IMG/VR virus record: IMGVR_UViG_3300027814_000008
DNA from: a virus
DNA: 25,304 nucleotides
Reading direction: 5' to 3' (one strand)
Shown: positions 23,994 to 25,304 of the stretch, piece after piece
Numbering within the stretch: position 1 is the stretch's first letter
How the letters are laid out: the number at the start of each line of letters is the position of its first letter
Notes under the pieces: generated by a model
What the model saw: the letters and a program-made list of their open reading frames with translations, nothing else
What the model was told of the DNA's origin: nothing
Databases searched by the model: none
Translations under genes and position numbers: made by a program

Positions 23994-24251
23994 ATGTATG
24001 GTATAGTTCAACGTTACACAGATATGGGAATAATTGAAGCTCATATCATGGAAGAAGAGGAATTGACTACTTTTCTATGTAATTATGAAAGTCAAGGTTT
24101 CAGCAAAGAATGTTCAAATGTTTATTATAAGTCAGATATGTGGGATGATATCTATGTTGATATTTATTCTACAATTGAAGAAGCACAAGAACAGTTAGTA
24201 GGATTCTTAGAGGCAATAGAACATGATAAGGAGGATTTTAAGAATGAGTAA
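23994..24251 (+). CDS. hypothetical acidic protein
   Basis: Preceded by degenerate copy of conserved promoter-like element + AAGGAG. Confidence 0.45.
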   Translation: MYGIVQRYTDMGIIEAHIMEEEELTTFLCNYESQGFSKECSNVYYKSDMWDDIYVDIYSTIEEAQEQLVGFLEAIEHDKEDFKNE

Positions 24252-25304
24252 ATTGATCTGTGAAGTAAGTAAAATTAAAAATATTACTCCACACCCTAAT
24301 GCTGACCGTTTGGAAATAGCGGAAGTAAAGGGCTGGTTTTGTATTGTACCCAAAGGTGTATACAAAGCTGGTGATCGTGTTCTCTATATTCCTATTGACT
24401 CTATGATCCCTACAGAATTAGCCGAAAAATTCGGTGTATTGAAATATTTGACCAATTATAAGAAGGATAAAGAAGGAAATATACTGGCTGGTCGTGTAAG
24501 GACTTGTAAACTCCGTGGAGAAATCTCTCAGGGATTAGTAGTTGATGTTCTCGATCCCACGTGGAAAGTGGGTAAAGATGTTACTGAGGAACTGGGGATC
24601 TTCAAGTATGAATTACCTGTGAAGGCATCCCTCAGAGGTAAAGCTGCTAAAGCTCATCCTGATTTTCATATTTATACCGATATCCAAAGATGGCAGAATT
24701 ATCCAGACATTCTCCAAGAGGGGGAAGAGGTCATTATGACTGAGAAAATTCACGGAACAAATTTCCGATGTGGTAGACTCTCCAATAGTTCTTGGATAAG
24801 AAACCTTCTCAGTAAAATCCCTGGTCTTAGGAAATTGAATACAGTTTTTTTAGTTGGTAGTCATAGGATGAATCTGAAAAGATCTAAGAAGAACAAATAT
24901 TGGTTGGCAGCTATCAAGGAAAAACTGGATAAGAAAGTTGAACCAGGTGAAGTCCCTTATGGAGAACTTTATGGAGAAGGTATCCAAAAAAAGTTTGACT
25001 ATAACTTGGAAGGAACAAATCTTCGATTCTATGATATCAAAAAGGGCCATAAATACCTGGATTGGGATGAAGTGGTAGCTATATGTAATGAACGTGGTTT
25101 ACAATTAGTCCCAGTTATATATAGGGGGCCTTTCTCTATTGAGAAAATGAAAGAGTTAGGAAGAGGTAAGTCTTCTATAGCTGACCATATAAAAGAGGGC
25201 CTTGTAATTAAGCCTGTAAAGGAACGTTGGGACGAGAACTTGGGTAGAGTGGTACTCAAATATATCAGTCCTGAATATGATGCCTTAAAAGCCGAATTAG
25301 AGGG
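24244..25304 (+). CDS. RNA ligase 2-like (KxHGxN) with N-terminal tRNA-binding OB (Myf/Trbp111-like) domain; 3' partial
   Basis: Not in ORF track (no stop in window). AAGGAGGA SD 8 nt before ATG. N-terminus ICEVSKIKNITPHPNADRLEIAEVKGW is the classic tRNA-binding OB motif (..HPNADKL.V..VD.G). Nucleotidyltransferase motif I TEKIHGTN equals T4 Rnl2 EKIHGTN. Motif IV EGLVIKP matches EGYVLKP. Confidence 0.7.
   Translation, partial: MSKLICEVSKIKNITPHPNADRLEIAEVKGWFCIVPKGVYKAGDRVLYIPIDSMIPTELAEKFGVLKYLTNYKKDKEGNILAGRVRTCKLRGEISQGLVVDVLDPTWKVGKDVTEELGIFKYELPVKASLRGKAAKAHPDFHIYTDIQRWQNYPDILQEGEEVIMTEKIHGTNFRCGRLSNSSWIRNLLSKIPGLRKLNTVFLVGSHRMNLKRSKKNKYWLAAIKEKLDKKVEPGEVPYGELYGEGIQKKFDYNLEGTNLRFYDIKKGHKYLDWDEVVAICNERGLQLVPVIYRGPFSIEKMKELGRGKSSIADHIKEGLVIKPVKERWDENLGRVVLKYISPEYDALKAELE

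Follow-up and report, generated by a model that had tools for sequence, protein, structure and literature searches.

The window analyzed here, a 25,304-nt stretch of viral DNA (IMG/VR record IMGVR_UViG_3300027814_000008), carries at its right end a gene which very probably encodes an ATP-dependent RNA ligase of 372 residues, assigned to the Rnl5 family (DraRnl/NgrRnl-type) and predicted, from its context, to be the enzyme that seals breaks in a phage toolkit for RNA/tRNA repair. The gene is preceded by an open reading frame (ORF) of 85 codons and by a gene for RlaP (Table 1). The ligase frame runs for 353 codons without interruption and meets no stop codon before the window ends, as a sequence-only reading of this DNA had already noted. 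The encoded protein begins with MSKLICEVSKIKNITPHPNADRLEIAEVKGWFCIVPKG..., and the start is supported by the beginning MSxLIVEV, shared as a consensus by 30 homologues; a Shine-Dalgarno-like motif lies 8 nt upstream of the ATG. The downstream sequence was recovered from protein P0001 (372 residues), identical to the ligase over all 353 residues and encoded on contig L001, which differs from the window by 26 mismatches in 3119 nt (99.2% identity). What the window lacks is a stretch of just 19 residues, GKIAKETGSDDVDLDIYDH, and P0001 stops 33 residues past the motif V lysine. Because the identical protein ends so soon, an undiscovered C-terminal domain was ruled out, and the unknown domain for which the sequence-only reading had left room does not exist.

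The protein scores 188.4 bits with TIGR02306 (RNA_lig_DRB0094, the DraRnl or Rnl5 family), for which the curated cut-off is 151.15 (E=1.6e-55; NCBIfam, the last 19 residues being absent), and matches in Pfam PF21189 ('PHA02142 OB-fold domain') at residues 7–100 (E=3.8e-20) and PF09414 (RNA_ligase; E=1.5e-25). It is also matched by phrog_968 'RNA ligase' (2.8e-60), and a database search gave 1100 homologues at E≤1e-5. Among relatives of solved structure, NgrRnl of Naegleria gruberi is the best match, found as 5cot at 1e-23 with the single sequence and at 1.3e-40 when a 30-sequence profile was compared to the PDB, the match covering the whole length (profile positions 12–328). T4 Rnl2 was matched by the same profile at 4.4e-13, in the nucleotidyltransferase (NTase) domain only. 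The Rnl2 model TIGR02307 reaches 42.1 bits against a cut-off of 197.15, and aligns to the NTase region (residues 161–343) only; the C-terminal all-helical domain of Rnl2 is missing. Membership in the Rnl2 family was therefore rejected, and the label 'Rnl2-type' given in the sequence-only reading is to be replaced by Rnl5.

The fold agrees with this assignment. An AlphaFold (AF2) model of the full-length protein, built on the 30-sequence alignment and with a mean predicted local distance difference test score (pLDDT) of 90.9, was superimposed by Foldseek on 13 NgrRnl entries through both domains (E~1e-23, TM 0.68–0.81, ~365 columns). Rnl2, Rnl3 and Rnl1 rank after NgrRnl and are matched through the NTase domain only, T4 Rnl2 at 1e-8 with a TMq of 0.42. 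Past the NTase domain, the model features just one helix (residues 343–360) and a disordered tail. From its N-terminus, the protein thus consists of an oligonucleotide/oligosaccharide-binding (OB) domain, a linker and the NTase domain, and no further domain follows. The fusion of OB and ligase domains described in the sequence-only reading is confirmed in composition by PF21189 and PF09414, but is not new, as it is the defining architecture of Rnl5. The ligase is a divergent new member of a known family rather than a novel fusion: it is ~26% identical to NgrRnl, at most 35% to any homologue in phage records and 64% to the nearest distinct metagenomic protein, and Rnl5-type ligases are annotated in >500 phage records. 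The main value of the analysis is thus one of annotation, an apparent new fusion turning out to be textbook Rnl5 architecture.

Residues assigned to the active site are listed in Table 1, with roles taken from the NgrRnl study (PMC7261155). HPNAD (residues 17–21), KIHGTN (168–173) and EGLVIKP (318–324), the motifs on which the sequence-only reading relied, are all in place, and the catalytic lysine is present within KIHGTN. E241, E318, G319 and K339 are invariant across 30 homologues, and D52 and K121 nearly so. Three OB residues engage the ATP gamma-phosphate and the second metal in NgrRnl (Arg4, Asp53, Lys121): two have conserved counterparts in the ligase (D52 and K121), and K3, unaligned, is a candidate for the third. 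The motif I pattern T-x-K-x-H-G-T is the same as found in DraRnl (T163/K165/H167/G168/T169), where His167 is essential (PMC1807946). An insert of ~19 residues separates NTase motifs I and Ia (residues 180–199, positions 24781–24840), and is modeled at pLDDT 67–71. Both the insert and the C-terminal helix with its acidic tail are lineage-specific; the closest relative, P0002, has both, and is the only one to have the insert.

After NgrRnl, the folds closest to the N-terminal domain in the structure comparison are all tRNA_bind-class domains. They include the putative tRNA-binding protein 3bu2, the beta subunit of phenylalanyl-tRNA synthetase (PheRS; 4p71, 7daw, 1b70, 2rhs), C-terminal domains of MetRS (5h34, 1mkh, 2cwp), CsaA (5zdi, 1gd7, 2q2h), Arc1p-C, the EMAPII-like domain of TyrRS, and p43. 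A clear gap sets these matches apart from other OB folds; the domain has the specific tRNA_bind-class sub-fold, and a generic OB fold was ruled out. PF01588 (tRNA_bind) remains below the Pfam threshold on the ligase (13.2 bits against 27, residues 8–28 only), while the HPNADRL motif and weak PF01588 matches (best E=2.3e-4) occur in 17 of 30 relatives. The tRNA-binding OB domain of the sequence-only reading is thus upheld in fold class and not by PF01588: the term describes the fold correctly, and is unproven as a function.

According to the same reading, the OB domain would be a genuine tRNA-docking module, recruiting broken tRNAs to be sealed by the NTase domain of a tRNA-specific ligase. This is unlikely, even if the nearest folds, the recurrence of HPNADRL in relatives, and the tRNA-related genes found close to the ligase here or in relatives (CCA-adding enzyme, RlaP, Thg1, class II aminoacyl-tRNA synthetase, Ro60/TROVE; see below) all speak for it. 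Domains of the Trbp111/CsaA type are dimeric when they bind tRNA, and the B2 domain of PheRS, a homologue, is not known to be a major tRNA contact, which both count against docking, as does the sub-threshold PF01588 score. Further, the OB residues conserved in the ligase, D52 and K121, are two of the three that make contacts in NgrRnl, where the demonstrated major role of the domain is in lysine adenylylation, promoted, as inferred by the authors, through contacts to the pyrophosphate leaving group (PMC7261155). Deletion of the NgrRnl OB domain cripples adenylylation and overall nick sealing, but spares step 3, which the truncated enzyme performs at a pre-adenylylated nick (PMC4408790). Characterized Rnl5 enzymes work on nicked duplexes in vitro, and tRNA is therefore not required. 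Use of the OB domain to target the ligase to tRNA is hypothetical. A putative homology between the N-terminal module of DraRnl and the B2 OB fold of PheRS beta had been pointed out earlier, in a study which also listed a phage homologue (Raymond & Shuman 2007, PMC1807946).

All recognizable genes of the window are on the plus strand, and the G+C content is 33.7%. The ORF set between RlaP and the ligase matched no family in Pfam or PHROG. It is probably co-translated with the ligase, because it overlaps the ligase start by 8 nt, and the cassette may thus have three components. In a scan of positions 20200–25304, promoter-like sites were not above shuffled expectation; terminator-like sites numbered 10, against 2.8 in shuffles, those on the plus strand falling within coding sequence, and none separates RlaP, the 85-residue ORF and the ligase. 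The same gene order is kept in contigs L001 and L002. In L002, which also has a CCA enzyme upstream, identity amounts to 64% for the ligase and to 30% for the small ORF (positions 7643–7873 of that contig; E=8e-7). Downstream of the ligase, L001 encodes a NUDIX hydrolase (3859–4407) similar to the Nudix half of NadM-type nicotinamide mononucleotide adenylyltransferase/ADP-ribose pyrophosphatase.

Two other genes of the window encode putative RNA-repair enzymes. A second RNA ligase is of the T4 Rnl1 type, its motif I KIDGS aligning with KEDGS of T4; an Rnl1 and an Rnl5 enzyme are thus paired on this element, a situation analogous to the Rnl1 and Rnl2 pair of T4. The tRNA nucleotidyltransferase of the CCA-adding type scores 213 bits with NF009814, below the cut-off of 290. 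With scores below the NCBIfam equivalog cut-offs, its specificity may be A-adding, CCA-adding or poly(A). This enzyme and the YqeY-like protein, both tRNA-related, are encoded upstream of the RlaP-ligase cassette.

Table 1. Genes of the window and functional residues of the ligase
Feature	Position	Strand	Details
HD phosphohydrolase	312-935	+	phrog_28876 2e-31; HDIG sub-threshold
P-loop kinase-like ORF	979-1644	+	AAA_28 5.6e-4; weak deoxynucleoside-kinase matches
Toprim primase	1992-2930	+	
CoaE, dephospho-CoA kinase	3927-4559	+	TIGR00152 95.7 bits vs 65.6
CoaD, phosphopantetheine adenylyltransferase	4495-5043	+	TIGR01510 134.4 bits vs 103.3
XPD-like helicase	5040-6677	+	
Protein like major vault protein (MVP)	8268-10718	+	816 residues; MVP_shoulder 4.3e-27, Vault_3 repeat, SPFH/Band_7
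T4 Rnl1-like second RNA ligase	10819..11946	+	PF09511 2.2e-16; T4 Rnl1 2c5u 1.2e-9
Lysozyme	13079-13696	+	
DnaJ-like	14045-14740	+	J domain and CXXCXGXG zinc-finger domain
CCA-adding-type tRNA nucleotidyltransferase	18832..20265	+	C-terminal HD domain; PF01743, PF12627, PF13735, PF01966; phrog_2244 6e-72
YqeY/GatB-like protein	21170-21583	+	
RlaP	22787..23866	+	PF10127 9.9e-22; phrog_388 2e-60; same position in L001, L002
85-residue ORF	23994..24251	+	ORF list; overlaps ligase start
Shine-Dalgarno-like GGAGG	24231..24235	+	read from the sequence
Rnl5-family ATP-dependent RNA ligase gene (very probable)	24244..25304	+	residues 1-353 of 372; truncated 3' at the window end
N-terminal OB domain, tRNA_bind-like fold	24244..24618	+	residues 1-125
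NTase (adenylyltransferase) domain	24724..25266	+	residues 161-341, PF09414
Motif I, T166-E-K168-I-H170-G171-T172	24739..24759	+	K168, predicted AMP-accepting lysine, aligns with NgrRnl Lys170
Motif III, G240-E241-L-Y-G	24961..24975	+	E241 = NgrRnl Glu227, catalytic-metal ligand
Motif IV, E318-G-L-V-I-K-P	25195..25215	+	E318 = NgrRnl Glu312, catalytic metal
Motif V lysine, K339	25258..25260	+	= NgrRnl Lys326, contacts ATP alpha and gamma phosphates
R149			= NgrRnl Arg149, binds ATP phosphates in NgrRnl (alignment)
D52 (OB domain)			= NgrRnl Asp53, second metal in NgrRnl (alignment)
K121 (OB domain)			= NgrRnl Lys121, ATP gamma-phosphate in NgrRnl (alignment)
H170			= NgrRnl Asp172, catalytic metal, motif I, in NgrRnl (alignment)

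The remaining genes are of various kinds. The genes coaE and coaD overlap, and together provide for the two final reactions of coenzyme A synthesis, on a phage-like element. The vault-like protein matches the major vault protein in the PDB at 5.5e-16 (residues 459–755 against MVP 467–787), and matched no PHROG family. Its homologues are limited to three unannotated 'uncultured phage' genomes of 462–735 kb among 50,697 phage records (43–45% identity, 93% coverage), and a vault-protein homologue in huge phages seems to be undescribed in the literature searched. A megablast search of the same 50,697 records with the 25-kb window found no near DNA match; for the ligase, similarity is at the protein level only (at most 35% identity). 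The best protein matches of the ligase are also in unannotated 'uncultured phage' genomes of 462–735 kb. Since these and the only vault-like matches reside in genomes of such size, the window probably derives from a phage with a very large genome.

The neighboring RlaP, CCA-adding enzyme and Rnl1-type ligase suggest a role in phage RNA/tRNA repair. Activity, substrate and cooperation with RlaP are predicted from homology, gene context and the literature. By homology with NgrRnl and DraRnl, K168 would attack the ATP alpha-phosphate in step 1 to form ligase-AMP, with E241 and E318 holding the catalytic metal, and R149 and K339 binding the ATP phosphates. The OB domain would close over the active site and orient the pyrophosphate leaving group via D52 and K121. 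AMP would then be transferred to the 5'-phosphate, and attack by the RNA 3'-OH would seal the duplex nick. In the repair toolkit, possibly directed against host ribonuclease defenses, the ligase would be the sealing enzyme, co-transcribed with RlaP, which would restore excised nucleotides at RNA 3' ends. Repair of tRNA 3' ends would fall to the CCA enzyme and that of breaks in single-stranded loops to the Rnl1-type ligase, and the Rnl5 enzyme would fill the duplex-nick niche held by Rnl2 in T4. RlaP is known to extend damaged RNA by 1–2 nucleoside monophosphates, and over-damaged tRNA is not restored without it (PMC12776372); jumbo phages have been described as carrying an RNA-repair kit of RNA ligases, RlaP and CCA enzymes (PMC7824862).

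Several observations weigh against a repair role of this kind. The physiological substrates of Rnl5 enzymes have been called 'uncharted', and the sole genetic data on the family, obtained with DraRnl, lead to recovery from ionizing radiation, possibly to DNA repair (PMC5397189). No polynucleotide kinase-phosphatase was recognized in the 25-kb window, and one would be needed because 2',3'-cyclic phosphate and 5'-OH ends require healing before an ATP-dependent ligase can act; nor was any tRNA gene found in the window. Linkage to RNA-repair genes is also not general across Rnl5 loci. IMG/VR contains 349 contigs with a relative of the ligase. Of these, the 80 best loci (±6 kb) were examined by tblastn and by phmmer/hmmsearch iterations, the queries being proteins of the window and of related loci. 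RlaP was found in 3 of the 80, the CCA-adding enzyme in 2, Rnl1 and RtcB in 1 each, and Thg1 in 5; counts are lower bounds, as single-sequence queries were iterated on the ORFs of the loci themselves, and neighbors <110 residues were ignored. Among 128 immediate neighbors of Rnl5 genes classified by Pfam, Metallophos occurs 6 times, NAPRTase 4 times, Metallophos_2 and class II aminoacyl-tRNA synthetase 3 times each, AAA_33 twice, HAD_PNKP and TROVE/Ro60 once each. Distant relatives adjoin RtcB (L003, L007), Thg1 (L006) and an HD protein (L007), but the large contig L005 has no RlaP, RtcB, CCA-adding enzyme or Thg1 near the ligase, where only a weak Metallophos_2 phosphoesterase match and an RNase HII gene were found. 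RNA-repair neighbors of Rnl5 are thus a recurring minority theme. A general linkage of Rnl5 to RlaP was rejected, and because the signal is thin in both the 80 loci and the 128 neighbors, the tight RlaP cassette characterizes this lineage, and not the Rnl5 family.

Two side observations concern enzymes possibly related to end healing or to nucleotide metabolism. The first two genes in Table 1, the HD phosphohydrolase and the P-loop kinase-like ORF, follow each other, and could encode RNA end-healing enzymes or enzymes of nucleotide or NAD metabolism; matches are weak or sub-threshold, and neither could be called as a polynucleotide kinase or phosphatase. NAPRTase, among the commonest immediate neighbors of Rnl5 genes in viral contigs, points together with the NUDIX hydrolase gene of L001 and with neighbors in L006 to a recurrent association with NAD salvage.

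Somewhat less probable still than tRNA docking by the OB domain is a role in DNA repair or replication, with the ligase closing those nicks of the phage genome whose 3'-OH strand ends in ribonucleotides, for example at RNA-primed or ribonucleotide-containing junctions, as proposed for DraRnl in irradiated cells. Deletion of DraRnl delays genome reassembly after ionizing radiation, Rnl5 accepts DNA both as 5'-PO4 strand and as template strand, and a DNA-repair function has been raised by the authors for Rnl5 and Rnl2 enzymes alike (PMC5397189). Genomic context provides arguments on both sides. RNase HII and a 5'-3' exonuclease are encoded near the L005 homologue, and ATP-dependent DNA ligase domains occur among immediate neighbors at 2 loci. 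Primase and helicase genes are present in the window, but 17–22 kb away from the ligase, the immediate operon partner of which is RlaP, an RNA 3'-end nucleotidyltransferase, with the CCA enzyme in the same block. A degenerate or non-catalytic ligase homologue, as might be suspected from the His at the NgrRnl Asp172 position and from the low-confidence, lineage-specific insert, is hardly credible, since all essential catalytic positions are retained, His is the state found in DraRnl and essential there, the NgrRnl D172A mutant is still active (PMC7261155), and the insert is found also in P0002, within a region of variable length.

If the ligase is, as favored here, the sealing enzyme of an RNA/tRNA-repair toolkit, a narrower proposal, speculative and on balance doubtful, may be added. 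RlaP, the 85-residue ORF and the Rnl5 ligase could form a dedicated pathway for tRNAs shortened by 'smart' anticodon nucleases (RloC-like), in which RlaP would refill the 3' end, Rnl5 would seal, and the OB domain would both orient the ATP leaving group and dock the tRNA. Such a pathway, if true, would for the first time define a physiological substrate of an Rnl5 enzyme. Rnl5 enzymes are structurally well understood, their in vivo substrates are not, and the gene context has therefore a modest remaining value. A phage cassette in which Rnl5 is probably coupled in translation to a small conserved ORF and to RlaP, close to a CCA enzyme and an Rnl1, is a testable setting for tRNA repair by Rnl5, and one in which to ask whether the tRNA_bind-like OB domain still binds tRNA.

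Phage members of the Rnl5 family have been known since 2007 (Aeromonas phage 44RR2.8t). Rnl5 enzymes seal 3'-OH(RNA)/5'-PO4 nicks (PMC4408790), in reactions which depend on ATP and Mn2+ and need RNA on the 3'-OH side (PMC4408790, PMC5397189). The ligase has the same OB-NTase order, with no C-terminal module, as DraRnl (DR_B0094 of Deinococcus radiodurans) and NgrRnl (PDB 5COT/5COU). It keeps the motif I lysine, the metal glutamates and the motif V lysine of NgrRnl, as well as the counterparts of Arg149 and of OB residues Asp53 and Lys121. In contrast to NgrRnl, it has ~19 additional residues separating motif I from Ia, ends in a helix and an acidic tail of together ~30 residues, has His at the Asp172 position, as in DraRnl, and retains HPNAD, which NgrRnl has lost (PIAGAE instead). 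DraRnl and NgrRnl are encoded in a bacterial and a eukaryal genome, respectively, the ligase in a phage RlaP cassette.

T4 Rnl2 and the kinetoplastid RNA-editing ligases have a homologous NTase domain, and the same in vitro chemistry, sealing of 3'-OH RNA nicks in duplexes, is expected of the ligase. The niche is probably that of T4 Rnl2, beside an Rnl1-type ligase in a phage; unlike Rnl2, the ligase has no C-terminal helical domain, and the leaving-group-orienting role would be taken by the N-terminal OB domain. The latter shares the sub-fold of tRNA_bind domains (Trbp111, CsaA, MetRS C-terminal, PheRS beta B2, Arc1p/EMAPII), but differs from them in being sub-threshold in Pfam, fused to a ligase, and in contacting ATP and metal in the solved homologue. 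As in known RlaP repair cassettes of phages and bacteria (Iyer et al. 2021; Burroughs & Aravind 2016; Carruthers et al. 2025, preprint), RlaP adjoins an RNA ligase, with a CCA enzyme and a second ligase in the same region, an arrangement reported for jumbo phages. Characterized RlaP proteins reside in RtcB-RtcA operons, whereas here the partner of RlaP is Rnl5, with a conserved 85-residue ORF in between.

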